Source: Lytechinus pictus
Lineage: Eukaryota
Length of the DNA stretch: 64,000 nt
Assembly (NCBI RefSeq): GCF_037042905.1
Contig: NC_087245.1
Coordinates: 26,786,001-26,850,000, forward strand
Reading direction: 5' to 3'
Below, piece after piece: positions 6,943 to 63,621 of this stretch. Below the pieces are notes generated by a model. It was not told where the DNA came from. It made no database searches and saw only the letters and a program-made list of their open reading frames with translations. The translations under genes and the position numbers were made by a program. Within the stretch, counting starts at the first letter, position 1; every line of letters starts with the position of its first letter.

Positions 6943-7330
6943 GTAAGTGCATAATTTCTGTTTTCACAATTCATTTGGAGAAATATTTAGACCATAAATC
7001 ACGCTAATCCCGGGCCGTGAGTATGGTCAAATACACGGTAAGCCCCTGGGCTCCGGCCCGCTGCGCGGGCTGGAGCTCCTTGGGTTAGGTGCCGGTGTGA
7101 AACTGGATTAGCTCCGCTCTGAGAGTCTATGAAATTAGCCCCCCCCCCTCCCCCTCATTAAATTCCAAACACAGACTTACATGTGTGGGGCTGACATCAC
7201 TGAGCTGAGCCGAGTCTGACCGAAGATGCACCATGCAATTCAAGGCAAAATTTACGATGACAAGTCAGTAGAAGAATACTAATCACACCATTCCTTTGTG
7301 GCCAAGAACATAAACCACTCAAAATCTCAC

Positions 7331-36700: not shown

Positions 36701-39700
36701 GTTGGTCCTTGGTCCTTTCAACCTCAAGAATGACTGTACCTGGGCATTACGATTTGATTTGCTCAACCAGAATACAGATATGGATAATTGGATACATTGA
36801 AAAAAACAAAAACAATAATAATGCTTGTGAATTTGATAGCCTAAATGCAGTTGTTAGAAGGTGCATGACAATATCCGCACATTTTGGACAGGAGTACACG
36901 GTTATTGCAGTAGATCAAGCTCTGCATTGCAGACTTATGGAACTGAAGTGGAGTGTTGATGAATACAATGAAAAGCTGATTCCTCGCCTTGGAGGTCTCC
37001 AAACTAATCAAGTTAAGAGCATATTCAACACTCAGGCAACGGGACTCCTCGCAACGAGTAATCAACCTATGGAATGATTTGCCTTCTGAGGTTGTAAATA
37101 GTAACAGTATAAATTCATTCAAATCAAATCTAGAGAAGGCCTGGAAAACCAAGTTTAATCGTTTCGATCCCGACACAAAATTTTCACAACTTGTCCAAAC
37201 CCACACATACATTGTAAAATTGTTGCGTTCAACAGAGGACAAGTTCAAAGAAGATGCAGAGGGGCAAATAAGTCTTCTATACTTTATGCCCAACATCAAG
37301 GTAAATCAAGGTAAATCACACCTCAATGAATTTCCTCAAGACTACTGGAGATCACATGGCTACTTCTGGTCTAACTGAACTGTGGTTAGAAAGTGGACTG
37401 CTTGGAGAGGGTGCTGTGCAGCTTGCCATGTCAGGGAAGTCATATAACAAGGCCATGAGAGCACATGAAATTACTACTGGAGAGCACATGAAATTACTAC
37501 TGGAGATCACATTGCTACTTCTGGTCTAACTGAACTGTGGTTAGAAAGTGGACTGCTTGGAGAGGGTGCTATGCAGCTTGCCATGTCGGGGAAGTCATAT
37601 AACAAGGCCATGAGAGCACATGAAATTACTTTGCAGGCCTTGTGGAGTGTTTTGTACCCTGAATTCATCTTGTTTGTGGAAACGAAGGAGCCACAATGTG
37701 CTCACTGAGATAAAAACTGTGAAGAACCCAGAGCAGATTGCACAACTGATCACGTATGTGATGCAAGAACAGTTTAACAAAGTTGGCAAAAACTTTGTCG
37801 AAAGTACAAGTAAAGCTGATTATGTGAACTTCAAGTTCTGGTGGAATTACATGGAAACGGTATCAATTCTACTTCAGTTTACTCGAGCAATGCGTGAAGG
37901 AAACTGGAATCTCCATCTCAAATCATTCAGCCAGATGTTGCCCTTCTTCATGAGATATGACCATCTCAATTATGCCAAATGGGGTCCAGTGTACCTAGCG
38001 GAGATGCACCAACTTCCACAATCAGTGCAGTCAGAATTTCGAGAGGGAAACTTTTTTGTCAAACGATCCCTTCATACGTTCAACCAAGTAGGCCCAGATC
38101 ATGCTATGGAATGGCTTCATGACACCAGGAAGAAAGCAGTTGGTATTTATTGGAATAACTTTGTTTTTTTGTATTTAATATTGTCCAAGAAAATAAATCT
38201 GAATCCTGATGTTTTAAATTTTTGTATATCTCTACAAACTGAGCCAACACACCGGAAGATATGAACAATATGTAGTATATGTACAATATCTTACCTTCTT
38301 GACAAGACCTCTACATGTAGCATCTTCATGGTCAGTCTCCAGAGATTCCAGGATATACCGATACAGCTCCACGGAATCCCCATGGTCCAGACATCCCGCA
38401 GCAAGCTTCTCACTGATGGGCACCGAACGATCGCTGTACGCCAGCTCATCCACCATCAACGTGATGAAGAGAGGGGTACGGGTGGCAGGGGTGCGGCAGT
38501 GGGCCAGGGAGAGGGCTTCGTGCTCCGGGGAGACCTGGAGACCGCGGGACTGGCCCAGGGCGTGGATGAGATCCTTGGAGTGGGATGGAGACAGGGGGTC
38601 CAGGTGGAGGGTGGGCCAGGATCTGGAAGGAGATGGAATTGGAGATTGGATTTAGGTCTTTGTAATGATCTAACGGGAAATACCAGGATGATAGTTTATC
38701 AATGACAGCAATGAATAAGAGTAATATGATAAAAATTACAATGAAGTCGAATTATGATGATGATGAAGATGGAGACAATGGATATGATGAAGATAGAGAA
38801 GATGATAGGATGATGATGGTGGTGGAAATGGTGATGGTGGTGGTGATGTTGATGATAGTAAATAATGATGATGATGATAATGATGATGATGATGAAGATC
38901 ATCATCATGATGATGATGTTGTTGATGACAAAGATAGTGATAACAATTATGATGCCATAATGAAAAAGATGCTTATGATAATGATCATAATTTAATCTCA
39001 ACAGTTGATTTTAATTCTTTGTAAATTGCTACAAACATTATAGCTTAAAATGAAAACTCAAGTAATCATGTTATTTGAATATTAATAATATCAACAACCC
39101 TCATTAAAAGAGGCCATCTTCCATTTCCTAAAATAGCTTGATCTAGACGGTAATGTTTGTGGAAATATCAAACTAAATTACTATTACATTCAGAGGATTA
39201 CTTACTTCCATGCAGGTAGGCAGTTTTCTGGATTGGCTGAAGCAATCACTCTGGTATCAACTGGAAGAGGGTCTAATAACCATCCAAGGTGAGAGTCTCG
39301 ATTCTGAGAAGGAAAAAAAAGATGGCCACCTATGTTTTTGCCTTGAATTGTACAACCATACTCTGGGGGCAGGGGGTCACTGCCATTCAACAGTGGACAA
39401 CATCCATGACTTCCAGGAAAACGCGGATAAAGGGGTGTTTTTCACAGGTAGATGCAGAACGAAAATAGAGTGTAAACAAGTAGAACGCCTCTGGCAGTCT
39501 CGCCTGCATTACGTGATTTAATATAGCAGCAGTGCTAACTTTGAAAACTGCTATAAAATAATCATTCAGAAAAACACCATTCATATGATGGCATAATACC
39601 ACGTTCATTGACCATAAATGACATTTGAACGGAGACTTAAGACTGTCAACTACACCCATGTCCACATTTCATTCACTCTATCCATAAACTTACAAAGTTA

Positions 39701-41426
39701 TGATGGCAATTCAACAATTGACCCAACATGGCCTAAGTTTATTGACCTTAACTGACCTTTGACTTGGTTTTGTGACCTGAAACTCACAGGGGATGTTCAA
39801 TGATGCTTGATTACTCTTATATCCCAAGATTTATGAACTAGATCCATAAACTTTCAGAGTTAGGATGGTAATTCAACAAATACCCCCAACACGGCCAAAG
39901 TTCATTGACCTTTAATGACCTTTGACCATGGTCATGTGACCTGAAACTCGTACAGGATGTTCAGTGATACTTGATTACTCTTATGTCCAAGTTTTATGAA
40001 CTAGATCCATAAACTTTCAGAGTTAGGATGGTAATTTAACAAATACCCCCAACACGGCCAAAGTTCATTAACATTAAATGACCATTGACCATGGTCATGT
40101 GACCTGAAACTCGCACAGGATAATCAGTGGTACTTGATTAACCTAATGTCCAAGTTTCATGAACTAGATCCATAAATTTTCAAAGTTATGATGGTAATTC
40201 AACAAATACCCACAACTTGGCCAAAGTTCATTGACCCTAAATGACCTTTGACCTTGGTCATGTGACCTGAAACTCAGGCAGGATGTTTACTAATACTTGA
40301 TTGACCTTATGTTTAAGTTTCATGGACTAGGTCCATATACTTTCTAAATTATGATGTCATTTCAAAAACTTAACCTTTGGTTAAGATTTTGAAAATAATT
40401 TTCCCAACATGGTCTAAGTTCATTGACCCTAAATGACCTTTGACCTTGGTCATGTGACCTGAAACTCAGGCAGGATGTTCAGTAATACTTGATTAACCTT
40501 ATGTCCAAGTTTCATGCACTAGGTCCATATACTTTCTAAGTTATGATGTCATTTCAAAAACTTAACCTTAGGTTAAGATTTGATGTTGATGCCGCCGCCG
40601 CCCCCGCCTTCGGAAAAGCGGCGCCTATAGTCTCGCTCTGCTATGCAGGCGAGACAAAAAAACCTAAAATGAGAAGAAAGCCCCCAGATCCTGATGGCCT
40701 AATAGAGTATGTAATTTGCACCGAATTCAACAGCAAGCCCATCTGGGCTCAAATCCCCCAATATCAACTGTACCAAACACAGGAAAATATCAAAACACAG
40801 TGTATGTTTAGTGCTTGCAGCAGTTGCCCCCAGTCGTTGCTCCCAAGTCCTGTCATTGAATAAGAGTGAGGCCCCCGGGCACACAAAAAAACTTGTTATC
40901 TGATGAAAATGTTGACTTAATTCGCTGAGAGCTTCATCGCATGTTGATTCCTGCATTGACCGTGTTTTTCCTTTTTTTACGCATTAGGCGTCGTTTTAAA
41001 ATAATTTTATAATGAAATCTGTTTAGAGTGTGCAAATCTGCGACATCTGCACAAAATATGTATTTAGAGAGTCCTTACAGCCTGCCCTTGAATCCTCATT
41101 TAGAGTACTTATTTAGGACAATATTTGTGGATGTTGTACACTCTTCAATGGCAGTGACCACCCCCCCCCCCGGGACAGTACTAGAAAATTTCACCATCGT
41201 CATAAAAATCATGATTCTCAACATCAGAATTATAAAAAATATGATCAACATATAATGATATGATATCAACAACATCATCATCATCATAATCATCTTCATC
41301 ATCATCATCATCAGCATCATCATCATCAGCATCATCATCATCACCATCATCATCATCACCATCATAATCATCAACATCATAGTCATCATCATCACCATCA
41401 TCAGCATCATCAGCATCATCATCATC

Positions 41427-41458
<32 letters not shown>

Positions 41459-44400
41459 CATCATCTGCAATATCTAACCTGGAGATTATCCAAGGAATCA
41501 ATGATGATGGTGATACCACCAGCCACCCTCAATGAAACTTTCTCCAACCATTTAGGGAACTCTTCTACCAATCTTGACGGCTCGCAAGACAGAGCAGGAG
41601 GAGAAGAAACATGCTGCATCAACTGAAAGAGATAAAGTTTCAATATATAAAATATATGAGGAATTCATTGAGAGAACAACTTAAGATGACTTGAATGATA
41701 GATGTTTAATTGGAAAAGATATTATCACAATGCATGGATTCGATATATCATTAATTGTGAATACTGTTCTTTTTTGCAGTTTTCAAGGCTATGATTGATT
41801 GGAATAAACTTCCATAAATAGTATGTTACGTTGGATTTGAGTCCTTCATAACTTGTGGCAGTTATGCAAGGCTTGTAATATTGTTGGCTACATGTCATTG
41901 TACAGGTATGTGAATGTAAAACACACCCAGAGATGCACCCTATACCATACACAAAATATTTGAATTATATTAATTGGAATTCTAAGTAAAAAATGTACAA
42001 TAAACTTATAATTGATTGCAAGATTATTTGTATCCTTAGGTTATAGACAAAGGACTGATAACTCAAGTTCTAAGACTTATGGGGTATTGCAAGAAATTTG
42101 CAATTCATCACAAGTATACTTTGGGTCGAAATATTGATCATAAGTATTGCAATTTAAAATTTGCACTTGATTACTGGTATCATCCTTGCAACAAGCATTA
42201 AAAATCTACTTGCTTTAGTTACAATTGATATATCAACTGTAAATCTTCAATTTATTGCAAACATTTAAAGCAACATCCCCCTTCGCAATTTAAATATTTC
42301 AGAGCCATTCACCTGTGCAGTCATTCTCCTGATCATGGTGACAGCGTTGGCACTGGACGAGTTTGGTGACCCGGTGAAGTGATAAAGAACCAAGCCTGGT
42401 GGGGCATCTTTCTGTTTCAGCTGAACCCATTTAGCGAGCAGCAAGGACTTTCCGCTTCCAGGGACACCACTCACCAGGAGAGGAGGTAAGGGACCGGCCG
42501 CTGCTACGTGTTCACTGATGCTCTCATAGTGCTGATAGAAAGACAACACAATTCCATGACATTTGCTCAGATGGCAACTGCTCCACTCTCTATTCCAAAC
42601 ACTAATCAAATGACCAACTTAATCCCTGGATTTATTAGTATATACTACCCTACCGAACCCTAACCATATATTCTACACAAAATAAAGGTGCAAATGCAGA
42701 CCTGCCAACCTCTGGGAATGAAAAACTGCATCTGTGATTAAAAAAATGTATTTTTCCTCCAAAAAGTGTATTTCATAATAAATGCTTGGCGCACTCGCTC
42801 ATCGCGGCGCTCAAGCTGCATGCAAGCTAAAATGCGCACTGCTCTTGCAGATGAAAAAAAAACATTGAAACATGTGTATTTCTTCACCCTGGTTTTAACA
42901 AAATGATTGAAAAAAAAACAAGTTACCTGAAATTACATTGATCTAATAACCATATTTGTGTACAATTAATGAAATAGAGACATATACAGATGATTTTTCT
43001 CAAATTACGATTTTGTAAAAAAAGTATTTTTTAAAGAAAAAACGTACTGCCGTATTTTGGTTGAAAAAACGTACTAAATACGCCTAAAACGTACTGGTTG
43101 ACAGGTCTGCAAATGTAGTGTCAACGATGATACAGTGTATTTCATCTGATTATTTGATGATGATGGCAAAGATAAAATGCTGTTCTAGTATATTGCACAT
43201 GCACATTAGAATTATCATCGACTTCCTAAGAACTTCATCAATATATGAATAAATGATAAAATAAAATCCTTGGAAGATTATAAAACTTGAATACGCATAT
43301 GAATACAATGGCAAGCCATGAAATGCTAATTAATCAGTTCATGGACGGCAATCTTTCAAAATTGCAATGTTTTAATATGTCATGAACAGAATGCTGTATC
43401 ACAAATTCCATTGGCCTCGTGGATTCATTCTCAATTCAAGCAGTCAGCGTAAAAGACACATAACACATCTGATGCATCAAAATATGTTGTGATTGTCATA
43501 ACAATAGTCCCTTATACAGAATAAGATGCATATAATTATAAAGACCACTCATGAGAGACCAGAAAAGTGGTCTTTATGGGCAGATGGTCATTCTGGACAG
43601 GTTCCTTTCATACCGGTTTAAATTTGGAAACCCTTTCAAGGAAAATCTTAATTGTTGTAAAAGTCAGGGGTCTGTTTCATACAACTTGTTATAATAACAA
43701 ATTTACAATAACAGTTAAAAGCTACTGAAATCCTTAAATCTGATTTGGCTGATAGTAAATTTGTTATAAAAATTGTGTATTTATTACAAGTCTTTGTGAA
43801 ATGGGACCCATGTGGTCCTCCTAGATGGTCACTGAGGCAGGTTGGACTGTATAAACAACATCTGGTGGATTACCTTTTCAAAAGTGAGCTCACATGTGGC
43901 TTCCTTAGCGATGTTAGCTAGTATTTCCTGTTGTTCTCCATCTCCATGGATGTCCCATTGCAGTCCACCACATCTCTCTTCTGTACTCTCATCCAGCTCG
44001 CTCTGGAACTCTGATGACATCTCAGAGGTCACTGCAGATTCAATACCAAGCTCCTGAACAAGAGAAGAAATGTCAGAGGTCATAATCAAACACAGCGTAC
44101 TAGATGATATCAATATCATTAACCCTTTTCTGTGCCAAAGACCTTTGACATTACAAGGTTTCAATACAATTACTATGACAATTCCTACATAAATTAATAA
44201 AATTTTATTTTGATATTGTAGGCTTATTTAGAAATAATTACACTTGCTTTAATATATCCTAACACTACACCATATAAGGGTCTCACATCAGAACACCAAC
44301 AGTAAATACTGTAAAAAATTAAGTATCCTATGACAAGTATATGCTCTCAATATTGAATCTTTCTCAATGTACAACTTAGATTAAGCATATTAATCTATAA

Positions 44401-47400
44401 AGTATTTCTGCATGAAGAGTAGCTTCAAAGCATGGTTTCAGAAACACTGAATCATTGAAACGCTGCAAATCTGAATCAGTGTGACTGGTTGTACCAAGTT
44501 CAGTTGAACACAGTAACTGAAATATAATTTACAATGCAAAAATGTGTAATAACTCACCAGTTTGATGATTTTCTCAAGTTCTTGATAGACAGCATCTACT
44601 CTCTCCCTGGTATTCTCTAATCCTTCTAAAATCTTTGCATTTCCACTGTTCTTGATCTGAGTCTTCAGAACTTCAGAACTATTCTCTTCTGGCTCAACAG
44701 ATCTACACAAAGACAAAGAAGTATTATCAAGTTTTAGAAGACAGCATCCACTCTCTCCCTTGTTGTGTAAACCTTCCAAGATTTTCGCGTTTCCACTGTG
44801 CTTGATCTGAGCCTTCAGAACTATTCTCTTCTGGCCCAACAGATCAACACAAAGACAAATATCAGATTTTGAAAGACATCATCTACTCTCTGCCTAGTGG
44901 TGTCTAAACCTCCCATGATTGTAGCAGTCCCACTGTTCTTGATTTGAGTCTTTAGACCTTAAAAACTATTCTCTGTTAACTCAACAGATGTACAATAAAG
45001 AAACATCATTCAGGTTTGGAAAGACAGTTTTTACTTTCGCATACGATCACTGATAGTAATATGATGTTCCCAGAGTGTAACTTACATTATCACTGTCAAT
45101 AAGCTTACCTATCATTGGTAAAACAGAATATGGCTGGCTTGGTCCCAGGATCATGAAGATGGCCAAGTTCAACTTCCTCCAAGGTAAACCTGGATAAAAT
45201 CAATCAATTACAATACATCCAAACTTGTCACTTGTGAAGTGCCATTATAGCTCCTATGATCACATAAGCCAAACTTTATCACCTTTAACAATCCTCTAAC
45301 ACTGCTTCTGTCTCAACCCCGAGAATACTGAGTTATTTCAAAGGTATTAAGAACAAATTAGAAGAAAAGCTCATCTTCCAATGACTTTGCACACATGTGG
45401 CATCACTATGCTTCATCCTCATGTTAATTTGTTCTCCAATACTTGCACAAGATTTTAAAGGGGAAAAAACATCATAAATATTGCAGCTATATTTCTGTGA
45501 GATGAGCTTCGAAAAAAATTGAAACATTGAGGGGGAGCACCATGCCCCCAGTCCTAGGGTTAGATTCTTTGAAGACATGGTTAGGGTCAGGGTTAAATAA
45601 AGTTATGGGCTCAGAACAATTTGAGGATTAGCATAAAAGTTTGGATTATATTTACGGTGACTGTAAGGGATTTGAGATCATGTTTGTGTTTTAGTTTAAT
45701 TTTTGCAGATTTTCTATCATGCCAACTGGCACTCTCGACAAACATGTAGATGACTATTTCTAAATACACTTTGCAATGTAAGCTGATAGATCAGATCCAG
45801 CTCAAGCCATTAAAGAATGAGGCTAAACAGAACTGTCTTAATCTACCATGCTTTCACTAGAGTTTACCATATACATTTTAAAATACCCTTCCTCCCCTTC
45901 AAAAAAAGTATAAAAACCCATGAATGATGCATACATGTACATTGTTTTTTAAATGAGAGAGTGCAATTAAAAACCAAACAGCAACAAAAACTCACCTATC
46001 AACAAGCTCGCCTAAGAAACTGACAAAGATGGTGCAGAACTCAACTTCCCTCTGTCTCACCGAGTGAAGTCTAAGTAGATCCTCATCCAAGAGAGAGGTA
46101 TTTGCACTTTCAGGGTCAAAGGTCAAATGAACAAGAAGCACAAAGCGACCTTCACCATCACCCAAGGAGCGAAGCTTGCTGCCGTAGTCCTGTGTTGTTT
46201 TGTGAAAAAAAAAGCAATAAATGTAAAAGTGAGATATTCAATGCATCCTAAATGATAATTGCAGTTTACATAATGAAACATACAAAGCAAATTTCATGGA
46301 ATTTACTGGAACATAAATAAATTACCAATAAATTATTTTCATACAAAAATCAAGCAAACTTCCACCATATATTTAATTATGATGACCAATCTATATGCAA
46401 TACATAGTTCACCAAGTAATAATTCCACTTCATAAAGAAAATGCATCAGCATGAAACTAGAATACAAGACTAGATGGAAACTAGGCTCATTATGAACACA
46501 CTAACCAATATGGTGACCATTACATTTACATTTTTAGCAGAATATAGGTCTATTTCAATCAGTAAATACTTTTGATATCACATATTATTTACAGATACAT
46601 ACATAAGATTACTCCATCGTTAGATTCTGGCTTATTCACACACAATGCACACCCTTTCTCCACTCCCTGGGGAGTATTCCAACCACAGTTTCCAAACTCA
46701 ATTGCCAGGTACATGTATACTACAGGAGCTTTCATGTCCTACCAGGGGGCCGTTTCATAAAGCTTTTCGTAAGTTAAGAGCGACTTTAAGAACGACTGGT
46801 GATCCTTTCTTACGCGCTAAACCATCGCCAATGAATAAACCATTTACCACAAGAAAGGATCACCAGTCGTTCCTAAAGTCGCTCTTAACTTACGAACAGC
46901 TTTAGGAAACACCCACCAGGTACCTATTTAACACCTGGGTGGAGAGTAGCAAAGTGTGCAAAGGTATCTTGCCAAAGGACGCTCTAGAGGCAATGGTGGG
47001 ATTTGAACACATGACCCACTGATCACAAGGCGTACGTCAGAACCACTATACCACAATGCATCCTTTTCCACTTAATCTGCATTACTTTCAGCCATAAGTA
47101 ATTACAAACCTTCTGTAATAAGGACGCCTCTTCATGCATGTCATGAGGTGCGCATATGTAGACTCTAATCACATTGAACAAGGCAGGACTGGAGAGGCTA
47201 CTCAACATTTGATTGAGTGCAGAGGCTGCAATACCGCTTATCTCTCCTGAATATATTTATAAACAAAAATTAAAAAAAAAGTGATAGTAAACTTCATACT
47301 GTGATTACAGTAAAGTACATGTATATATTAGTCAACATTCCATACATTAAATAATAGCCAAAACAATTTTACAGACATTGTTATGAAAATTGTGTTATTT

Positions 47401-50305
47401 ACTTATTCTACAAAAAATTCAAACAAGTTTCTGTGGTCCCAAGAGATTTAACTTGAGTAGAATCATCTTTATTTCCTTTATTCCTGCAAATATTAATTAC
47501 GAAAACCTCCAATACACATAACTAACATAACTTCTGCAGAGCTATACAGCCCAAGAAGAAACTTCATTTACCTTTACCATCACTGCTAGAGTTGCCATCT
47601 ATATCAAATACATTAGTGTCCCTGAGAGGCTGGAGTTGTGACATGCTGCCAAGAGAGGGCTCACTCTCTAATACTGTCCACCAATCTCCTGGGTTACCAC
47701 CTGTCAAAAAAAAATTTAACCTGAACATTATATTTCACAGGTAACAGATCTACAGGTGATGATAAACACTCTCTGCGATCTGTTGTTCACTAAAGTGGCA
47801 CTTACTCTCGCCTTTATTTTGCCTCCCCCTTAAAATTTATTCTCTTTGCAAATATCAAAGTCAAGTTGAACTAAATAAAACAAGTACCCAGTACATTTCA
47901 GAGACAATCAATGACCGAAAGGGGTGGGGGGAGGGGCAAGGGAGAATGGCAGAAGTAGGGGAAAGAAATGCAAAAGATAGAGCAAAGGAAATGAAGGAAG
48001 GAACAGGGGGGGGGGAGACTAAGGGTTTTGTTTTGTTACAACATTTATTTATACCAAAAAAAGTTACTTATTTCATGAATACCATTAAAAAAAATTCTGA
48101 TAAATCAAGAATTTAATGAGTTGCTCCCAAGGTATTTATCAAAATGTTTGCATGAAAAGATAATGAATTCACCTTGTGGTTCCTGGATGTTAGAGTCTTG
48201 AGGTTGACCATCAACTGGTTTAGCCCAATGAAGTGTTTCTTCCAGGTCCTGTCTAACTCTCAACAGATCACGAATCTCACTCTCTTTGCTCTCTCGAAAA
48301 AGCTATCAGGATAAATGTGTGTACAGTAGTCAAAATGAGAGAATAAAAATGTAATAAATAACAACAATGCATAAAGTCTAAGGCAAAGATGTGATGAAAT
48401 AGTTCACCTACATGGACGGTTATAGCAGTAGGCCTACCTCTGAATAACAATTGCCCAAGCTGGCCTTGGCATCAGCTTAAGCAACATCACTTTAATTCAG
48501 CGGCCTAGTTACTCTTAATTTCTGGTTTTGACTATATCAATGCAGATGAACATTTTCTTCTGTTCTCTCCATACACAGCGCACCATGAAATAGGTATGAT
48601 ATGGATATCAATTGACATCAGTTTCCTCTTTAGATTGTATGTGATTTAAGTACATGATGTTAATACATCAATGGAGTATTCTACTTTACTGTACATAAAT
48701 GAGTGTGATGACAACCTATGAAGATTACACAAACAATCTGGCAATTAAACAAAAGTCAGAACATCTAAGAAATTATGGACTTTAGTCAATTTTGGAATTA
48801 CAGGTGCTTAGTAGCAAGTCACAAGTAATGACAATCTAGTCACCTAAAGAGGGGGTATTACATTCAAGAAACACTATCAACTAAGCATTTACATTTCTGC
48901 ACAATACATCTATTGTTCAAGTACTATTACCTAGTCCAAGTCCAATGCCCAGTTTTTTGGTGACACGGAAAATGGAACAAATTTACAGAATTCAGAAAGA
49001 ACACAGAATTCCCAGAATTTCACACGAAACACAATTTTTCAGGCCCCCAAAATTTGAATTACATGTATGTACTTCAAAGCAATATCTAAAAGAGCAAACC
49101 TGTGAGTAAGTAAAAAATCAGCCTGTTTGTGTGTTTGCTAAGCTTTATCTGCATGGAAACTTTAGTTCATATAAGATTATCATTAAATTTCTTTACATTT
49201 TTATTTTTACATGTCCCAGAAGAATACTGAATGTGACGATTTAAAACACTGATTCACACGTAGCATTTTTGAAAATGGAAAAACAGGGGACTCTAGGAAT
49301 ACGAAACACACAGAATCATGTTCACACTATACTGACCTTGAATTGTCTCTGAACTTTGTTCCTATCATGTTCAAAGGTTGCTGCTCTTTCAAGAGCTTGG
49401 TATTCAGCATCCAGTGCCATGTCTCTCTCAAGTCTTAGTTTATTGCACGTTTTCTGTAAAGCCTGTAGATGAAAGGGTATAAACAGAGCATAATGGTTCA
49501 TATTATCAAGTATAGTAGAAGTTGGGCCAAGGTCTAGATCTAGTGCTTAAACTTATGGGAAGCCAACAATTTTGTTTACACTGTATGTTTCTTCGTACAT
49601 GAACGTTGTTTTCAACACATGTTTTAATGGAAGACTAGGTAGTTACTATTCATAAATGGTTATGAAAGAATTAAGCACCAATATGTTGACTAGTTGAAAA
49701 TCTAGTATTGTTAGAGATTTGAGTCACAACTGGCTGTCCATATTAACTTACACCACAACCTTAGACCAGAGTTTAAACTGAATCTAAATCTAAATTCACC
49801 CCTCCCAACACACACATACATGTGCTTTTCATTAAAAAAAAAGTTCACAGGTATAGAAACCAATTGTGAAATGAGTATAATTTGAATATAAAATGGAAAA
49901 TCCTAATTTTATGAAGGGGAATCCACTGAAAAAAAAAACAATCAGGGGGTGGGGGTGGTTTATATGGAAAATAAAATAAAGAGAAAGCACCTGTAACTCT
50001 GCTCTCAAACGTCTATTCTCCGACTCCAGTTTTTTCTCCTTCTTCAGCAGGTCACTCATCTCATTCTGTTTTGCAATTTTGAACATCTCAAAATCCCTCC
50101 TCAGCTTCTCCACCTCTGTGCTTTCCAATTCCACAGACAATGAAGACCGAAGACTCATGCCCTTGGGTCTACGTCCAAAAGACCCCACCGAGCGCAGAGC
50201 ACTGCCCAGTGTCCGTCTCGGTTTCATCTCAATCGGGATACGTTTGATGACCCCGGGCTGGTCATCATCATCCCCATCATTGGGGAAGGAGCTTCCTGTT
50301 CCCAT
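21452..50305 (-). CDS. NPHP3: Nephrocystin-3 (NPHP3) orthologue, 22 coding exons, ~3900-nt CDS
   Basis: N-terminal MGTGSS myristoylation motif; coiled coil [15 protein letters not shown]...[11 protein letters not shown]-loop [16 protein letters not shown]-terminal TPRs ending SRRSSS. All introns are GT-AG and phases join into one frame. Confidence 0.95.
22328..22450 (-). CDS. NPHP3: NPHP3 exon 21 (TPR)
   Basis: [10 protein letters not shown]...[21 protein letters not shown]. Confidence 0.9.
23315..28921. mobile_element. Academ-type DNA transposon (5.6 kb, decayed)
   Basis: TAGGTGAGCGGC...GCCGCTCGCCTA termini (TAG..CTA); 3-bp TSD TAA (23312-23314, 28922-28924); ~180-bp strongly matching TIRs with longer imperfect arms. 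Confidence 0.75.
25240..25420 (-). mobile_element. tRNA-derived SINE inside the Academ element
   Basis: Minus strand GATAGCTCAGTCGGTAGAG (A box), GATTTGATTCCC (degenerate B box), body GGAGAGGACATCAAGCTGTCGGTCC. Confidence 0.6.
29697..29937 (-). CDS. NPHP3: NPHP3 exon 20 (TPR)
   Basis: [21 protein letters not shown]...LAVLYRKQ. Confidence 0.9.
31177..31386 (-). CDS. NPHP3: NPHP3 exon 19
   Basis: [11 protein letters not shown]...[15 protein letters not shown]. Confidence 0.9.
31876..32114 (-). CDS. NPHP3: NPHP3 exon 18 (TPR)
   Basis: [19 protein letters not shown]...YRKQNK. Confidence 0.9.
33349..33437 (-). CDS. NPHP3: NPHP3 exon 17
   Basis: [27 protein letters not shown]. Confidence 0.88.
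34027..34250 (-). CDS. NPHP3: NPHP3 exon 16
   Basis: RLTEELPYL...[12 protein letters not shown]. Confidence 0.9.
34935..35038 (-). CDS. NPHP3: NPHP3 exon 15
   Basis: ACDAVRL...[17 protein letters not shown]. Confidence 0.85.
35459..35623 (-). CDS. NPHP3: NPHP3 exon 14
   Basis: [20 protein letters not shown]...FAHTQ. Confidence 0.9.
36790..38150 (+). pseudogene. Disrupted Academ-type transposase fragment in NPHP3 intron 13
   Basis: Motifs [57 protein letters not shown]; broken by a LINE insertion, a ~150-bp duplication and frameshifts. Confidence 0.7.
37002..37318 (+). mobile_element. 3' fragment of a CR1/L2-group LINE
   Basis: [29 protein letters not shown]-terminal signature; tandem tail (ATCAAGGTAA)x2; removing it restores GGLHTSMNF in the transposase. 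Confidence 0.75.
38295..38622 (-). CDS. NPHP3: NPHP3 exon 13
   Basis: [11 protein letters not shown]...CRGLVKK; AG/GTAAG. Confidence 0.9.
38700..38992. repeat. Degenerate (GAT)n microsatellite
   Basis: Direct reading. Confidence 0.9.
39206..39303 (-). CDS. NPHP3: NPHP3 exon 12
   Basis: [18 protein letters not shown]...CLPAW. Confidence 0.9.
39475..40662 (-). mobile_element. Intact HINE/Helentron-like element with ~163-bp tandem core
   Basis: Same termini and core as 22542-29440, without the Academ insertion. Confidence 0.75.
41264..41465. repeat. (CAT)n microsatellite
   Basis: Direct reading. Confidence 0.95.
41479..41622 (-). CDS. NPHP3: NPHP3 exon 11 (Walker B-like IIIDSLD)
   Basis: [13 protein letters not shown]...[10 protein letters not shown]. 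Confidence 0.9.
42313..42531 (-). CDS. NPHP3: NPHP3 exon 10 (P-loop)
   Basis: [20 protein letters not shown]. Confidence 0.92.
42697..43109. mobile_element. MITE (hAT-like termini)
   Basis: CAGACCTGCCAACC / GGTTGACAGGTCTG TIRs; CAAATG duplicated on both sides (6 bp, not the usual 8). Confidence 0.65.
43874..44053 (-). CDS. NPHP3: NPHP3 exon 9
   Basis: ELGIES...[11 protein letters not shown]...CELTFEK. Confidence 0.88.
44558..44702 (-). CDS. NPHP3: NPHP3 exon 8
   Basis: SVEPEE...AKILEG...LEKIIKL; AG/GTGAGT. Confidence 0.85.
44735..45040 (-). repeat. Two decayed tandem copies of the 5' part of NPHP3 exon 8 and its acceptor
   Basis: Blocks ~44735-44860 and ~44872-45000 align to ~44587-44717. 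Confidence 0.8.
45109..45189 (-). CDS. NPHP3: NPHP3 exon 7
   Basis: [21 protein letters not shown]; phase 2/2. Confidence 0.82.
45996..46189 (-). CDS. NPHP3: NPHP3 exon 6
   Basis: DYGSKLR...VRQREVE..IFVSF. Confidence 0.82.
46640..47054 (-). mobile_element. tRNA-derived SINE interrupted by a MITE
   Basis: Minus strand GTGGTATAGTGG..GTTCAAATCCC head; body CTCTCCACCCAGGTG..AATAGGTACC|GTAGGAC resumes beyond the MITE; related to 52932-53163. Confidence 0.6.
46746..46916. mobile_element. Palindromic Harbinger-type MITE
   Basis: GGGGCCGTTTCATAAAGC..AAGTTAAGAGCGACTTTA arm and its reverse complement; CAG on both sides. Confidence 0.75.
47110..47246 (-). CDS. NPHP3: NPHP3 exon 5
   Basis: [24 protein letters not shown]. 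Confidence 0.82.
47572..47700 (-). CDS. NPHP3: NPHP3 exon 4 (alternative in-frame end at 47578 possible)
   Basis: [18 protein letters not shown] matches the conserved SEPSIGSM motif. Confidence 0.82.
48173..48302 (-). CDS. NPHP3: NPHP3 exon 3
   Basis: [21 protein letters not shown]. Confidence 0.88.
49337..49462 (-). CDS. NPHP3: NPHP3 exon 2
   Basis: ALQKT...[18 protein letters not shown]. Confidence 0.92.
49991..50305 (-). CDS. NPHP3: NPHP3 first coding exon
   Basis: MGTGSS...IPIEMKP...[10 protein letters not shown]. Confidence 0.92.
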
Positions 50306-50762
50306 GACGATACTTGTACTTTACATCATTCAATTGAAAAAAGTCATTGCATGGTCTACTCAATGTAAATCTGATGCACACCAGTACAAGTTCTCTTCCA
50401 TTTCTCCATGCCCGTTTCCTTCTCTGAATGGAGGCATATTTAGCTCATCTCAGACCTGAAAAAGGAAGATATGTACATTGCAAATGAATTAGCTTGGTGA
50501 TGATAGGAGATTTAACCTTTTCATGTCATTGCACATCAGCTATAAAATGACAGGTTACAGTACATCAGTTTTATAGCAAGATTGCTTTTCTTTAACTTCA
50601 CATTAAATGACAGAGTGCCTCTCTAGTCTTCTGTGCATGCTCAATCTGAATTGAGGTGAATGCTGTCACTGCCACTGGTGGTAGATGTATCAATGTCAGT
50701 GAGTGGTGTGGTAACTTATTTTCAGGATGATTGTACAGTCACACTTAATCTGAGGCAAATTA

Positions 50763-53163: not shown

Positions 53164-55335
53164 CTTAAAATTTGTATAATTGATACAAATGAAATAAAGC
53201 ATATTGAGTAAATGAAATTAAGCTTTGAAAGCCTATAGTCTATAGATTATGTTGATTTCTTACATAGTGCAACTTCTTCTCACCCCTATAGATTGATAAG
53301 ACTAAAAAAAACCTGAGACTACATGTATGAGGAATAAACTTATAAAATGTCAACTTAATTTTTTGGCATTCAATTTCCTTGATTTAGTAATTTTGGGAAA
53401 AATATGAACTTTTTTGTTGAAAATTCAGTAACAAAAATTGTAGTCATCTCTTAATACTCCAAAAATGTAATTAAAACATCATGAGCTTAAATCATATTGT
53501 ATTAATTGTATAATTTAATTGATTTACAGGAAAATTACATCGTTCGTTGGAAAAAAACGTTTTAAAACGATTTAAAACGTTTTAAAACAATAAAAAACGT
53601 TTTATTTGTTTTTTTTAATAAAAAACGTTTTTTATTACAACCCTGATTGCTTGTGTATGCTGTAGATCCAGTCATTATCATTATGAAATTTTTCGCAGAT
53701 TACTGTGAGTGGGAACAGTGGAAGTTTCTGACCGTATTTTAATGAGTTTAAGCATGAAATATGAGTCAGGTCGGCAGAAGAAAACACCATAAGTAGGCTT
53801 GGCAATGAGCGCTAGATGGCACTGCCGGGGATGTGCTCAAAATTTGTGTGTGTGCGTTGGCCCAATTTTCAATTCCCTGCTGCCGATATCGCTTCCGTGA
53901 TGCAGTACATGTATGACAGGGAGGAAGAATACTTTTTTTCCCCTCCTTGATTGCACTCCTGTGTGGTAAATGCAGCGGCATTGTAACCGGCTGGATTTAA
54001 GCTGGATTCTGATACCAAATTTAGCTTCAAAATCCAACGTAATCCACTCAAAATGAGCCCATATCTGTCAATAAATCAAAGATTTTGATCTACGCTATTT
54101 TCAAGTTTTGCCACATTCTTTTCTCATTTTAAGGGGTTAAGGTGGGATGACAAACCAATTTATTGATCATTTTCGCAACTTGAATTGTTGAAGTTTCCGT
54201 GTGTGGCCGTGAAATGCAAGCCTAGTGCAGCACACCATGCATACTGGAGCCATGTTGATATAGGCTTGCATTATTAATTTCATGGATTTACGCTAGCGTG
54301 CTGAGACGTTTTCACACAAGATGAGTATGCGTCCGACATAAAGCTGAGCGAGAACCAATTTCGTCTATGTATTTTTTGACACATAAACATGTGAGCTATT
54401 TTGCTACAGAAATATGACATTTCTGTAACTTTTAAGTACATGTAAGTTTCATTAAGTTTTTGGTGTTGAGGATTATGTTGGTGTATTTTTTATGACAAAT
54501 AAAGAGCTTTCTAAAATCCTACCTACCAAAATAAACAATGTTTTACTTACACATGTATAATATTACATGCGCACCTGCACTTCAAAAACAAGAGCTTTTA
54601 ATAATAAATAATTGTATGTGATAAGTTCCCCTCTTAGGTTCTACACACAAAACCAGTACGTTTATCTTCATCATCTTGAAGCATGGACAGGTATAACCGT
54701 CGTTTCTGGGGATTTCTTGAACCATTTCTGACATTTCACTGTCAATCTCCATTCACCATCAGTAGTACGTTAGTGCGAGCCTGCAGGTGTAATCATATCA
54801 CCCAATTCGGGCCTGTAGTGTATTGTCTAGATTTTTTTTTTTTTTTTTTTTGGGGGGGGGGTCTAAATGACAGAAAATCAGCTTTAACGATGGCCCACAT
54901 TTTTCTTTAGATTCTAAGCTTTCTCTTGATACTATTAATTTTCAAATAAAATACAAAAAATATACTGATTATTTATTTCTTACTTGTTAAAAATTTTCAC
55001 TGGAGATGCAATTTGGCAGCCGTGTGTAGCCGCCCTCTTCTTCTTCTTTTTCTGTCTTGTGGTGTGTTGGCAACCAGTCAAAAAATTACTATTTTTGCCA
55101 CTGCTTTAATTTGGAGCCTTCTTTGAGAGGATGAAAAGCATCTTTCCTTTCATCCTTTCTTTTTTTTTTTTTACTTTCCTATTTTCCTTCTCATTTTCCC
55201 CCATTTTTTCTCCTTCTGTTTTCTTTTCTGTTCATCTTTCTTTTTTTCTTTTTTCTTTTCTTTTTCTTCTTTTTTTCTACCTCTTTTTTTTTTTTCCTTT
55301 TCTTTTTTTCTGTTCGTTCTACGTTCGTTAAGTTA

Positions 55336-58300
55336 GGCTTTTATCAAAGCTTTCCAATTAGAATTTTTGATATCCTGGGCAAATCAATGCAAGCGACAAG
55401 TTCCAAACGCACGCATCCACAATTAGCAATATGAAGACAAGCACAGTGGCACAAATCGCAATATATATGTATGGCGACTGGTAAAGACGTCTGTAAGGAT
55501 GATAACAAGGTGGCAAATTACGATGACCAACAAAAGGATCGAGGATGACTATGTTTTCATCATCTTTGGAAAGGAATTAGCAGTAACTGCGGTCTAAGGT
55601 ACAAAATTTCTTAATTTTCTTTATGTTTTCTTGTCAAGTTGGATGTAATTTCTTTTTTAAATCCTGATATTTCATGTACAAACTAGCACATTAAAGATGT
55701 GGAGTTCATCCGGCATCTCGCAAGTAATTAAACAAAATTTTCAATTTCAGCCCAGTTGACACTGTAGGGAATTACATTGGTGACATAAATTGAGGAAACA
55801 AAATTGAAATTAGTGAAATGATAGAGAAGAAGCATTTTTTGTGATTTATGAATAAATTTCATATAGATTTATAAGCATAAATAATTTTCTAGTCAAAATT
55901 TCGAAAATTCTGTCTAGAATCTTGGTGAACGTCATAGCTCTCAGATGGAACAAAAAAAAATCAAAATCGGTCAACAAATAAATAAGAATTTATTTGAGAT
56001 TATGAATAAAATTTGCATAAATTAGCATAAGTAATTTTTTAGTAAAAATATTCTGTGTACAAGTTTGGTGAACCTCATGCAGCTCTACCAGATGGAACAA
56101 AAAAATCAAAATTGGTCAATAACATAAAGAAGGGCATTTTCTGTGAATCATTATTAGCATAAATGTAGCTCTCAGATGGAACAAAAAAATCAAAATCGGT
56201 CAACAAATAAATAAGAATTTATTTGTGATTATGAATAAAAAAACATTGTTTCTGGGGATTTATTCAACAATTTCTGACATTTTACTATAATCCCCATTCA
56301 CCGACGGTAGTGTGTTAGTGCGAGCCTGCATGTGAAATCTGGTCAGCAATTCGGAGGACCGGTTTTGTCCAGATTTTAATTTCTTTTAGATTCTAAATGA
56401 CATTATATTATCTTGAACACGAAGGCCCACTATTTTCTTTAGACTCTAATATTTCTTTTGATACAATGTAAGTTCTATAAAATATCGAAAATATACGTTA
56501 TCGATGAGTTATTCCCCAGGTTATTCCTTATTTTTTTAATTTTCTGCCGGAGAGGAAAAAATGGCAGCCCTCAACGAGTTGTGCTTTTATCAAGGCTTTC
56601 CGATTAAATTTTTGATATCCTGGGCAAATCAATGCAAGCGACAAGTTCCAAACGCACGCATCCACAATTAGCAATATGAAGACAAGCACAGTGGCACAAA
56701 TCGCAATATATATGTATGGCGACTGGTAAAGACGTCTGTAAGGATGATAACAAGGTGGCAAATTACGATGACCAACAAAAGGATCGAGGATGACTATGTT
56801 TTCATCATCTTTGGAAAGGAATTAGCAGTAACTGCGGTCTAAGGTACAAAATTTCTTAATTTTCTTAATGTTTTCTTGTCAAGTTGGATGTAATTTCTTT
56901 TTTTAAATCCTGATATTTCATGTACAAACTAGCACATTAAAGATGTGGAGTTCATCCGGCATCTCGCAAGTAATTAAACAAAATTTTCAATTTCAGCCCA
57001 GTTGACACTGTAGGGAATTACATTGGTGACATAAATTGAGGAAACAAAATTGAAATTAGTGAAATGATAGAGAAGAAGCATTTTTTGTGATTTATGAATA
57101 AATTTCATATAGATTTATAAGCATAAATAATTTTCTAGTCAAAATTTCGAAAATTCTGTCTAGAATCTTGGTGAACGTCATAGCTCTCAGATGGAACAAA
57201 AAAAATCAAAATCGGTCAACAAATAAATAAGAATTTATTTGAGATTATGAATAAAATTTGCATAAATTAGCATAAGTAATTTTTTAGTAAAAATATTCTG
57301 TGTACAAGTTTGGTGAACCTCATGCAGCTCTACCAGATGGAACAAAAAAATCCAAATTGGTAAATAAAATAAAGAAGGGCATTTTCTGTGAATCATTATT
57401 AGCATAAATGTAGCTCTCAGATGGAACAAAAAAATCAAAATCGGTCAACAAATAAATAAGAATTTATTTGTGATTATGAATAAAAAAACATTGTTTCTGG
57501 GGATTTATTCAACAATTTCTGACATTTTACTATAATCCCCATTCACCGACGGTAGTGTGTTAGTGCGAGCCTGCATGTGAAATCTGGTCAGCAATTCGGA
57601 GAACCGGTTTTGTCCAGATTTTAATTTCTTTTAGATTCTAAATGACATTATATTATCTTGAACACGAAGGCCTACTATTTTCGTTAGACTCTAATATTTC
57701 TTTTGATACAATATAAGTTCTATAAAATATCGAAAATATACGTTATCGATGAGTTATTCCCCGGGTTATTCCTTATTTTTTTAATTTTCTGCCGGAGAGG
57801 AAAAAATGGCAGCCCTCAACGAGTTGTGCTTTTATCAAGGCTTTCCGATTAAATTTTTGATATCCTGGGCAAATCAATGCAAGCGACAAGTTCCAAACGC
57901 ACGCATCCACAATTAGCAATATGAAGACAAGCACAGTGGCACAAATCGCAATATATATGTATGGCGACTGGTAAAGACGTCTGTAAGGATGATAACAAGG
58001 TGGCAAATTACGATGACCAACAAAAGGATCGAGGATGACTATGTTTTCATCATCTTTGGAAAGGAATTAGCAGTAACTGCGGTCTAAGGTACAAAATTTC
58101 TTAATTTTCTTTATGTTTTCTTGTCAAGTTGGATGTAATTTCTTTTTTTAAATCCTGATATTTCATGTACAAACTAGCACATTAAAGATGTGGAGTTCAT
58201 CCGGCATCTCGCAAGTAATTAAACAAAATTTTCAATTTCAGCCCAGTTGACACTGTAGGGAATTACATTGGTGACATAAATTGAGGAAACAAAATTGAAA

Positions 58301-59560
58301 TTAGTGAAATGATAGAGAAGAAGCATTTTTTGTGATTTATGAATAAATTTCATATAGATTTATAAGCATAAATAATTTTCTAGTCAAAATTTCGAAAATT
58401 CTGTCTAGAATCTTGTTGAATGTCATAGCTCGCAGATGGAACAAAAAAAATCAAAATCGGTCAACAAATAAATAAGAATTTATTTGAGATTATGAATAAA
58501 ATTTGCATAAATTAGCATAAGTAATTTTTTAGTAAAAATATTCTGTGTACAAGTTTGGTGAACCTCATGCAGCTCTACCAGATGGAACAAAAAAAATCCA
58601 AATTGGTCAATAACATAAAGAAGGGCATTTTCTGTGAATCATTATTAGCATAAATGTAGCTCTCAGATGGAACAAAAAAATCAAAATCGGTCAACAAATA
58701 AATAAGAATTTATTTGTGATTATGAATAAAAAAACATTGTTTCTGGGGATTTATTCAACAATTTCTGACATTTTACTATAATCCCCATTCACCGACGGTA
58801 GTGTGTTAGTGCGAGCCTGCATGTGAAATCTGGTCAGCAATTCGGAGGACCGGTTTTGTCCAGATTTTAATTTCTTTTAGATTCTAAATGACATTATATT
58901 ATCTTGAACACGAAGGCCCACTATTTTCGTTAGACTCTAATCTTTCTTTTGATACAATGTAAGTTCTATAAAATATCGAAAATATACGTTATCGATGAGT
59001 TATTCCCCGGGTTATTCCTTATTTTTTTAATTTTCTGCCGGAGAGGAAAAAATGGCGTGTGTGTGTGTGTGTGTATTTGAGTTTTGTCAGACGTGTATCA
59101 ATCAGATATGATTATTTACGTCTGGGACCGACCTTTAACGTCACCATCCGAAAGACGTGACCAGGGCTCGAACCTCTGCATCAATTTGTAACTTCCCCGC
59201 ATAGCTTGGATTACAGGCGCACGCCACAACGCCCAGCCCTCAACGAGTTGTGCTTTTATCAAGGCTTTCCGATTAAATTTTCGATATCCTGGCCAATCAA
59301 TGCGAGTTCCGAACGCACGCACATCTACAAGCGCAAAGCAGCAGCACAAATCGCGATATATAGCGACTGGTAAATACGTCTGTAAGGATGATGACGTCAT
59401 CAAAGGTGGCAACTTACAGACCAACGAAAGGATCGAAGATGACGATGTTTCGATCATCATTTGAAAGGAATTAGCGGTAACTGCGGTCTAAGGTACGATA
59501 TTTCTGAATTTTAAACATTTTTTCTTAAATATGGATGTGATTTCTTTTTCATAATGTGAC
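55336..59560. repeat. Tandem array, 1245-bp unit, ~3.3 copies, plus a diverged partial copy at ~54700-55020
   Basis: Identical ORFs at 56528 and 57773 give the period; units are near-identical; the last partial unit is more diverged. Confidence 0.92.
59057..59237 (-). mobile_element. Candidate 7SL (Alu-domain)-derived SINE with (CA)n tail
   Basis: Minus strand GCTGGGCGTTGTGGCGTGCGCCTGTAATCCAAGCTATGCGGG; B box GGTTCGAGCC; absent from the other array units. Confidence 0.7.
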
Positions 59561-60174
59561 ATTTTATGTACAAAAAAATGATCGGAAAATCAGTTTTCCG
59601 CCGAATGTTAGATCTAACGTTACTGCTAGTAATAGTATAGTATTGCTAATACGTTATACGTACGGGCCTCCAAGCTCTATGTATTGGTGAGTAAGCCAAC
59701 GCAGTTCAGCGGAACAACCAAAATACAGAGACTGAAGCTTTTGGTCTACACTTATTAATAATAATATTATCTGTCTCTGGAAGAATAAGACAGCACACAC
59801 AGAAAATAGCACAAGGGACTAGGAGTAGGACCATGCTAAGTAACATAACAACCTACCAAAACATCCAGAGATAGATGTCTATACTAATTTGCTTACATAC
59901 TGACTTGCCAGCAAGAACTCATTCTTACCTCGACATGTAGCTGCAATTGTTTAAACGTTGACACGACGAGATTTCTTTTCAGCTTTCCATTCATTCATCT
60001 GCCTTTTTCTTGACTCCGATCCCGAGGCCGAGTGACGGGTCCGATCAGCAACAAACATTAACTTTCTGAAAAAAACTACCGCATGTCACAAGAGGGCAGT
60101 ATACCCCCAGCGCAATAGTGTCCCTGTATAGAACACTACAGCGCAAGGCCCTATATAAATGGTATGAACAGGCG

Positions 60175-61963: not shown

Positions 61964-62632
61964 ATGGCTGTTTTTCTCTTTGACCTCAATGACCACAGCA
62001 TGGCATACCGGAATCGCTATCATAATGTAGACAGATATTGCCTGGAGAAATGAATCGTTCTGATTTTCGAAAGAATTATAGGCTGAATTATGAAGAATAT
62101 GAGTGGTTGTGTGACTACATCCGTAATGACGAAGTATTTGAACGTAGACAGGAAAATGGAAGAGTGCTGTCAGTAGAACTAAAGGTGGCAGCAGCGCTGC
62201 GTTTTTTCGCTAGTGGCAGTTTTCAAAACGTTGTAGGGGACGTTGCTGGGATCAGTCAGCCTTCCCAAAGTAGGGCTGTTGCGGCTGTTACCGATGCAAT
62301 CACCCGCAAGGCTTCTGATTTCATCAATTTTACTTTAGAACCAACCGCAACAAGCAAATCAAACTTTGCAGCAATTGCTGGAATGCCCAATACAATTGGA
62401 TGTATTGATTGTACACATGTTTACATTCGTGCACCTCGAGAGAACGAGAACATATACGTCAACCGCAAGAATCGTCATTCAATTAATGTCCAAGGAATCG
62501 TGGATTCTAAAATGAGATTTGTTAACGTTGTGGCAAAATGGCCAGGGTCTTCTCATGATTCCTACATATGGGAAACAAGCAATGTTCTGAATGATTTCAG
62601 GATGGGAAGGATGCCACCAGGATGGTTATTGG
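61964..62632 (+). CDS. Harbinger (HARBI1-like) DDE transposase, first exon, apparent 1-nt frameshift near 62048
   Basis: ALRFFASGSFQ..VGD..GISQPS, GCIDCTH, YVNRK..HSINVQ, KWPGSSHDS, GWLLG, then a GT donor at 62633 where DSGY is expected. ATG 61964 is out of frame with the main ORF. Confidence 0.8.
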
Positions 62633-63621
62633 GTACGGATATATTTTTTTTCCCGATCATTTTAAGCATATTTCTCTGAAACTAAGAAAAGGTATTCCGG
62701 GCATATAGGCCTATACATTCAAACAAACGAAACGGACTACCGTATAAATAATAATTAAAAAAAGTGTAGGATATGGGAGGGGGCGGATGTCCGGACACTT
62801 TATATTTTTGAAGCCTTCTTTTTTTGTCTTTGGATTACACTAAAAATGTTAATTCAATAGTTGTAATCATCTTCTTTTTTTGTTATCGATAATATTTCCT
62901 AACATTTTGTACTAAAAACTTGATGAAACTTCAATTCGCTTGTAAATATTTCCAAATGACTTTCTAAAATTGATCGTCCGGATACAATAACTGGGTATAT
63001 ATGATTTTTGTAAATACTTTTTATCATCATTATTATTTGATCATGTTTGATTGCGTGATGGGTGCGTTTGTTAATCAATTCCATATAAAGCTCACTATCT
63101 CACAACGATCCATATTGGAAAGATGTACAAAATATACAAAATGTATAGAGCTTTCTAGGATAGCACACAGGGTGGGCATTAACCCGAATTTTACTATGGT
63201 CTCAACTTTATGCCATATCAAAATATTCCCCCAAAATCAATGAAACTGTCTTCACACTAAGTAATATTTTTGTTTCTCCCTTTATTTTTTTTATTTCTTT
63301 GTTTCTTTTTTACTTCGTACCTTTTTGAATTGATTTATTCACTTACTTCATGCAATCTATATATCCTTCCATCTCTTTGTTTTTGTGGCTTCTTCAACCC
63401 TTTCTCTTTCATTCAATTCCTTCTTTCAACACTCCCTTCCTTTGCATTCTTCCTTTCATCTTTCTGTCTTCATTCATTCCTCCCTTGCCTAATTAAAAAT
63501 TATTGGAAACAAAACGATACTCTTGGCAAGTATTCCCTTAAATGAACCACTTAACAAGTACAGCAATATTTTATTGTTATGTCACGGGTCGTCGGTTTTA
63601 CCATTACACATCATTTGGTTA

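Follow-up and report, generated by a model that had tools for sequence, protein, structure and literature searches.

We consider it quite likely that the element inserted at 59057-59236 of the window (the whole 64-kb stretch of Lytechinus pictus DNA analysed here) belongs to a young chimeric SINE family of about 1,300 or more copies, which is probably still active and whose origin was independent of that of Alu. Judged from the alignments, its head is nt 1 to ~45 of the host's own 7SL RNA, and this is followed by a linker, a Pol III B box, the beginning of an Inv/Deu-like body and the 3' end of a LINE. The copy is composed as follows.

59057..59236, minus strand: full-length SINE copy with the +1 base of the family lost (comparison with family copies and empty sites)
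59191..59236, minus strand: 7SL-derived head, the whole 5' Alu domain (closing helix, helix 3 with the A box, U-turn, helix 4), element nt 2-47 (host 7SL alignment, RF00017)
59175..59190, minus strand: linker, the first bases of which are predicted to pair with the U-turn region (fold prediction; weak match to 7SL nt ~133-165)
59165..59174, minus strand: putative Pol III B box, element nt 64-73 (consensus match in 37/40 full copies)
59124..59157, minus strand: Inv-like body, the 5' end of the Nin/Deu conserved domain, including a small hairpin (host Deu domain alignment)
59075..59123, minus strand: LINE-derived 3' end, a two-tier stem-loop (59089-59123) and an A-rich stretch (LINE alignment, fold)
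59057..59074, minus strand: (AC)9 tail (sequence)

The B box, the small hairpin, the 3' stem and the CA-type tail, here (AC)9, all lie where the initial annotation of this DNA had placed them.

The 7SL-derived head and its possible Alu fold

The host genome contains 7 full 7SL genes among 25 scored Rfam matches. The head aligns to one of them, L007, with 41 identities, 2 mismatches and 4 gap columns, the match running across 30 consecutive bases, and to the other six with 39 identities, 4 mismatches and 3 gap columns. The start of the element coincides with 7SL +1, and the two-sided closing-helix variant of L007 is also present in the element. The 7SL/Alu-domain head put forward in the initial annotation is therefore borne out by the host's own gene, and the Rfam model Metazoa_SRP (RF00017), the check suggested there, gave the best of 6 matches on 58500-59800 (E 6.9e-5), although its 27.4 bits are below the gathering score of 70. 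A head derived from tRNA or 5S RNA, the competing outcome named in that annotation, was rejected: neither the Rfam search of 58500-59800, with Metazoa_SRP as its best match, nor ARAGORN on the window reported a tRNA or 5S match for the head, and ARAGORN found 0 tRNA genes in the 64 kb. The homology to 7SL extends well beyond the A box and stops where the 5' Alu domain closes; the 3' strand of 7SL (nt 240-299), which was also sought in the element, gave no match (p 0.73-0.81).

The analysis of the Alu domain reveals that 12/14 tested pairs are canonical, a number equal to that of host 7SL, and that the U-turn positions show 0 variants in 32 copies. The differences between subfamilies cluster in the helix-4 loop (variation of 0.116 vs 0-0.036 elsewhere in the head), the GC dinucleotide of which is kept at least partly in 31/32 copies and intact in 30. 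In ViennaRNA, whose fold model contains neither loop-loop tertiary pairs nor protein, the Alu fold is less stable than the optimum by a median of 6.0 kcal/mol in 33 copies and by 2.1-2.2 in the 7SL genes, and is not favoured for real 7SL either. The median probability of the U-turn being unpaired is 0.02 in the SINE copies vs 0.67-0.72 in the 7SL genes, the predicted pairing partner being the linker just downstream. Shuffled sequences fold as stably as the whole window copy (z 0.14), so that claims on the fold rest on homology and not on energy. At the level of sequence, the elements of the Alu domain noted initially are intact.

Moldovan et al. (PMC11760393) showed that SRP9/14 is bound by a 46-nt 5' domain and that this domain is enough for a single round of retrotransposition, and G24/G25 of the U-turn are described in a review (PMC11581171) as critical for SRP9/14 binding. 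By analogy with Alu, the chances are about even that the retained 5' Alu domain would bind SRP9/14 and dock the RNA on ribosomes making ORF2p; the predicted competing helix over the U-turn and the missing 3' Alu strand speak against it. We tentatively propose, at a probability only just short of one half, a natural 'minimal Alu' and the first 7SL-derived SINE of an invertebrate, in which the SRP9/14-binding 46 nt would be joined to a foreign B box and an I-group LINE stem-loop, combining ribosome docking with stringent 3' recognition, and which would still be jumping in an animal amenable to experiments.

It is also possible, at a probability somewhat below one half, that the 7SL head provides only the Pol III start site and the A box, the Alu fold being unformed or unused, and that the LINE stem-loop alone recruits the RT as in a stringent-type SINE. 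Such a head would agree with the competing helix predicted over the U-turn in most copies, with the absence of the 3' Alu strand and with the statement in Kojima 2020 (PMC7245038) that the SINEs of non-L1 LINEs are generally recognised via 3' structure. It explains less readily that the 7SL homology ends exactly where the 5' domain closes and not at the A box, and that the subfamily differences concentrate in the helix-4 loop while its GC is largely kept; furthermore, the energy model argues little in its favour, since real 7SL is likewise not favoured in the Alu fold.

Linker, body and candidate partner LINE

Both internal promoter boxes of Pol III are present in the sequence, the A box region being identical to that of host 7SL. 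Six of the seven host 7SL genes (L001-L006) have an extragenic B box 19-43 nt downstream and none in the 5' half, against a background of 0.09 per kb, from which we infer that a 7SL fragment needed to acquire a B box. The gene closest to the SINE head, L007, has no B box within 400 bp. With high confidence, Pol III would transcribe the SINE from the 7SL A box together with the acquired internal B box.

A tRNA-headed SINE of the host has a Deu domain with which element nt 81-114 agree in 26/34 columns (p=0.001 against shuffles), and the remainder of that domain, beyond the 34-nt match to its 5' end, is absent from the element. By eye, the body resembles the Deu 5' end shown in Suppl. Fig. S4 of Kojima 2020 (PMC7245038); the Inv domain, described as the 5' part of Nin/Deu, is listed for echinoderms (PMC5804259). 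The tRNA-headed Deu-domain SINE of the host (L063-L075) is ~400 bp long with an (AAT)n tail, and gave 1,906 first-look candidates with copies 93-95% identical to the query.

We regard as fairly probable, and with moderate confidence in the step itself, a birth by head replacement, in which a 7SL 5' fragment would have taken the place of the front part in a tRNA-headed Inv/Deu SINE already provided with a LINE tail. Head replacement is known in the Inv/Nin/Deu superfamily, where 5S heads are reported (PMC5804259, PMC4824008, PMC4758252). A direct tRNA-headed parent with the exact body and tail was not found among 30 body-anchored loci or in genome motif searches. The search by means of a one-base-shorter Deu motif gave 3 matches, as did its control; two are decayed copies of the family and the third led to a DeuSINE with a tRNA head, which differs in spacer and tail and is not the direct parent. 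A tRNA-Cys-like origin of the linker was rejected, since a degenerate pattern of this kind had 0 matches in the genome, a weak negative given the strictness of the pattern.

Element nt 48-80 may represent either the T-arm of a tRNA-SINE or 7SL nt ~133-165. We think it unlikely that the linker and the B box both come from 7SL, either from the helix-6 region (nt ~133-165) or colinearly from nt 46-100, with the B box having evolved in place, in which case the element up to nt 80 would be a two-piece deletion product of 7SL and not a 7SL/tRNA-SINE chimera. Element nt 46-80 do match host 7SL nt ~133-165 weakly, in 24/36 columns (dinucleotide-shuffle p 0.005-0.007, about 0.006), the colinear alignment reaches p 0.03-0.07, and the missing tRNA parent points in the same direction. 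However, the first match is post hoc among about ten tests and contains three gaps, and a longer form of the alignment ran into sequence now attributed to the Deu domain and the LINE; moreover, tRNA-headed SINEs have their Inv/Deu body immediately after the B box, as is the case here.

The candidate partner LINE is an addition beyond the initial annotation. An HMM of the SINE tail matched a different repeat at L128 (E 1e-5), and a search from this repeat gave 342 first-look candidates, which turned out to be 3' ends of a LINE 6.1 kb long. Full-length copies are found at L169 and L170 (96.8% identical); L170 and L172 have an additional LINE 3' end upstream. ORF1 shows two CCHC knuckles and ORF2 matches the Pfam families Exo_endo_phos, RVT_1 and RNase_H, the last one below the cut-off because in L169 the reading frame breaks inside the domain; the C-terminal CCHC of ORF2 is in another frame in L169. 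This copy (L169:1722-7830, 6.1 kb) is a near-intact young I-group LINE with an open ORF2 stretch of 1,125 aa and the frame break in the RNase H region. Its APE, RT, RNase H and CCHC knuckles place the candidate partner, at the level of its predicted domains, in the I superfamily.

The 3' 47 nt of the SINE are 79-83% identical to six of seven long LINE copies, and the seventh aligns over 35 nt. The predicted stem-loop is identical in both elements (12 pairs), with two compensatory, two-sided changes and a one-sided one. In the comparison of the SINE tail with the LINE, the best of 304 LINE windows scored 53 against a shuffled maximum of 42. Of 26 LINE 3' flanks, 13 match one of 75 SINE 3' flanks, compared with 0-2 for each of 20 random sets, these matches being non-independent since one repeat family dominates. 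The 5' flanks agree at L012/L144, the SINE sits immediately behind the LINE at L128/L138 and L144, and the target duplications of the LINE are mostly short, as in the SINE. It is very likely that the SINE is mobilised by this LINE lineage through the stem-loop. Of a LINE with a common 3' stem and a (CA)n tail, as looked for in the initial annotation, the stem-loop was recovered, whereas the LINE ends in (AAC)n and the SINE in (AC)n. Given this difference and an identity of no more than ~80% to the LINE tail, the SINE may actually be driven by a sister family. In the mechanism that we propose with high confidence, the ORF2 protein of the I-group LINE (APE endonuclease, RT, RNase H) would bind the common 3' stem-loop and, by target-primed reverse transcription, would insert the SINE at the LINE's own target sites.

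Two further candidates were discarded. The search for a LINE with the exact SINE stem gave 2 matches and its control 4, one of the two being a SINE copy with an internal deletion. At window 5400-6963 (minus strand) lies the 3' part of a different RNase H-bearing I-group LINE, which ends in (AAC)n and has an unrelated 3' UTR. Nimb LINEs have been reported in sea urchins; Nimb/I LINEs are described as partners of SINEs in molluscs (PMC11481361).

Insertion locus and family of copies

The insertion lies beside a tandem array, the features of which are the following.

55331..59056, plus strand: three ~1245-bp tandem units, ~99.2% identical (unit alignment)
56558..56572, plus strand: empty site 1, junction 56565/56566 (unit comparison)
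57803..57817, plus strand: empty site 2, junction 57810/57811 (unit comparison)
59239..59574, plus strand: 78%-identical paralog of the first 359 bp of the tandem unit, the crossover partner explaining the array

The units are spaced by 1245 and 1246 bp and show 7-10 mismatches per ~1190 bp between them, and the SINE is inserted at the end of the third one. Measured against the empty sites the insert comprises 59057-59234, and both its length of 178 bp and the two empty sites had been correctly recognised in the initial annotation. The sequence at 59239-59574 was ruled out as a fourth unit, being the 78%-identical paralog. The 46 bp following each empty junction match this paralog and not the start of the first unit, which indicates that the array arose via unequal crossover between two old paralogs flanking the insertion site, and that the empty junctions are true pre-insertion copies. 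The SINE arrived after the formation of the array, or on another allele; of the earlier suggestion that it postdates or escapes array homogenisation, a recent insertion is supported, and postdating the triplication fits better than escaping homogenisation. The window copy has lost the +1 base of the element, has 2 nt in common with the target instead of the 3 nt reported before, and shows no target-site duplication. The base formerly taken as the first of the element is host DNA, the family starting with A in 34/39 full copies.

A genome search with the SINE gave 1,618 first-look candidates; among the 39 best copies besides the one in the window, 21 have an identity of 100% and 18 of 99%. The head pattern has 1,347 matches in the genome at no more than 2 mismatches (7SL genes included), a number that disposes of a single-copy sequence, and the body and tail patterns have 807 and 1,086 exact matches, the reversed control giving 0 in each case. 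The 21 fully identical copies and the two empty sister sites indicate that the family is young. When 30 tail-anchored copies are compared with a single reference copy, their median identity is 98.4%. A few copies are found near 80% identity, and the lineage predates its last burst; in these old copies (~80%) the decay is similar in head and body, with no head-specific signal of selection. An older subfamily around L062 showed no close sister among 40 scored matches.

The copies are dispersed, multiple, uniform in structure, non-coding and within the 100-600 bp of SINEs. They bear the marks of retrotransposition, namely 5' truncation, a variable tail (6-30 nt across 39 copies), an empty site and short target duplications, mostly of 0-6 bp. 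Duplications of at least 3 nt occur in 19/33 copies vs a shuffle mean of 9.4 (maximum 14), and of at least 4 nt in 8/33 vs 1.9 (maximum 6), tandem copies and copies beside the 7SL genes on C10 having been left out of the count. At 30 body-anchored loci the head is full in 24, partial in 2 and of tRNA type in 0, while 4 are truncated further down.

As far as its sequence goes, the element corresponds to the definition of a SINE1, having a 7SL-derived 5' head and not being a full-length 7SL retrocopy. Kojima 2020 (PMC7245038) warns that full-length 7SL retrocopies mimic SINE1; nevertheless, retropseudogenes of 7SL or one-off template-switch chimeras which do not propagate themselves are a very improbable explanation for a uniform chimera with one fixed junction in 32/41 sampled copies reaching the 5' end, with subfamily variants common to copies, and with a body and tail that are not 7SL. 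Contamination with human Alu or an assembly artefact, suggested only by the Alu-like head, is more improbable still, because the head follows host 7SL over 30 bases, more than 1,300 copies lie within host flanks on many contigs, and 14 sequencing runs (two organisms, six studies) contain at least half of the sampled words. Fewer than 5 of these words occur in the runs labelled sea urchin, echinoderm, marine, estuary and fish metagenome, which therefore provide no evidence.

Three 7SL genes (L001, L005, L006) are arranged in tandem at C10:7.91-7.92 Mb. Upstream of each, in the same orientation and ending ~33 bp before the gene start, there is a ~86%-diverged SINE copy, L001 having two; these copies are a single old insertion amplified along with the gene cluster. 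Head-to-tail SINE dimers with common flanks are found at several loci (L009, L057, L010 and paired matches on C2, C4, C7 and C18), L010 having a monomer at the same site. The dimers look like a second insertion into one hot-spot followed by spread within a carrier repeat, and not like a retroposed dimer. A 163/192-bp tandem repeat family, present in the window at 22690-23313, 29007-29364 and 39658-40581, also flanks SINE insertions at L019, L024, L031 and L042.

Comparison with known SINEs

The hagfish SINE1-1_EBu, as described in PMC7245038, is likewise a young chimera of an independent 7SL head with an older SINE, ending in a LINE tail plus a microsatellite, and has about 2,400 copies vs about 1,300 in the sea urchin. 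It contains 7SL nt 1-96 and the 3' strand, i.e. the full Alu domain with the B box taken from 7SL, whereas the sea urchin SINE has nt 1 to ~45 only; it depends on an RTE LINE with ~17-bp TSDs, in contrast to the I-group LINE tail and short duplications found here, and the Inv/Deu-like body and the invertebrate host are on the sea urchin side.

Alu, FLAM, B1, Tu and the shrew-mole Urop (Kosushkin et al. 2026, PMC13023118) have in common with the sea urchin SINE the extreme 5' Alu domain with the U-turn and the A box. In that account they consist of 5' and 3' pieces of 7SL around a ~183-nt deletion, carry poly(A) and are mobilised by L1, unlike the sea urchin SINE, which is devoid of a 3' 7SL piece and of poly(A) and has a LINE stem-loop of stringent type. 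The joining of 7SL 5' and 3' parts across a central deletion, as in Alu, B1, Urop and Ebu1-1, was not recovered here in view of the p values given above for nt 240-299. Nor does the element fall within the Alu/B1 lineage, which goes back to the Euarchontoglires ancestor, given its (AC)n tail, its I-group LINE tail and a head closest to the host's own 7SL. Thus, in the proposal of an independently evolved Alu/B1-like family the independent origin is supported, but the build is not Alu/B1-like, with the 5' domain only and a stem-loop plus (AC)n instead of poly(A).

The extent of 7SL sequence is equal to that of the engineered minimal Alu domain SA46/AY46 (46 nt; Moldovan et al., PMC11760393), an artificial construct provided with a CMV promoter and poly(A), whereas the sea urchin SINE is natural and has its B box downstream. 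In the same work a 46-nt fragment without a B box is said to be unable to repeat the cycle unless a promoter is gained. The body matches the 5' end of Nin/Deu in Inv/Nin/Deu SINEs such as SINE2-3_SP and AmnSINE1; the heads reported for these in PMC5804259, PMC4824008 and PMC4758252 are tRNA-, 5S- and LINE-derived, in contrast to the 7SL head found here.

The 7SL-derived SINEs given in PMC7245038 and PMC13023118 are those of supraprimates, shrew mole and hagfish only, and the birth of a SINE from 7SL is presented in PMC13023118 as an exceptional event that always involves about the same central deletion. In the literature, searched by title and abstract, no 7SL-derived SINE was reported from echinoderms or from any other invertebrate, Repbase, Dfam, SINEBase and subscription journals being outside this search. 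Besides an invertebrate origin, the present family would bring to the 7SL SINEs a new build restricted to the 5' domain and, after L1 and RTE, a third type of LINE, the I group. It makes testable whether SRP9/14 docking is a general advantage of SINEs or a special trick for the poly(A)-binding L1, and the youth of both the SINE and the near-intact candidate LINE renders binding and retrotransposition assays feasible. Young copies are also potential insertion markers.

Other elements and genes were observed in the window. A 1,333-aa open frame at 11397-15398 (minus strand) looks by eye like an intact gag-pol of a Gypsy-type LTR retrotransposon, and an exon of a Harbinger-type DDE_Tnp_4 transposase lies at 62026-62679 (plus strand). 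Exons of a Methyltransf_16 lysine methyltransferase are located at 17099-17644 (plus strand). The exons of nephrocystin-3 extend over 31818-50320 (minus strand), and the SINE lies ~9 kb beyond the N-terminal one. An exon of this gene shows identities of 97-99% with three proteins of sea urchins, 75-77% with those of sea stars and 47-53% with those of vertebrates, which marks the host as a sea urchin.
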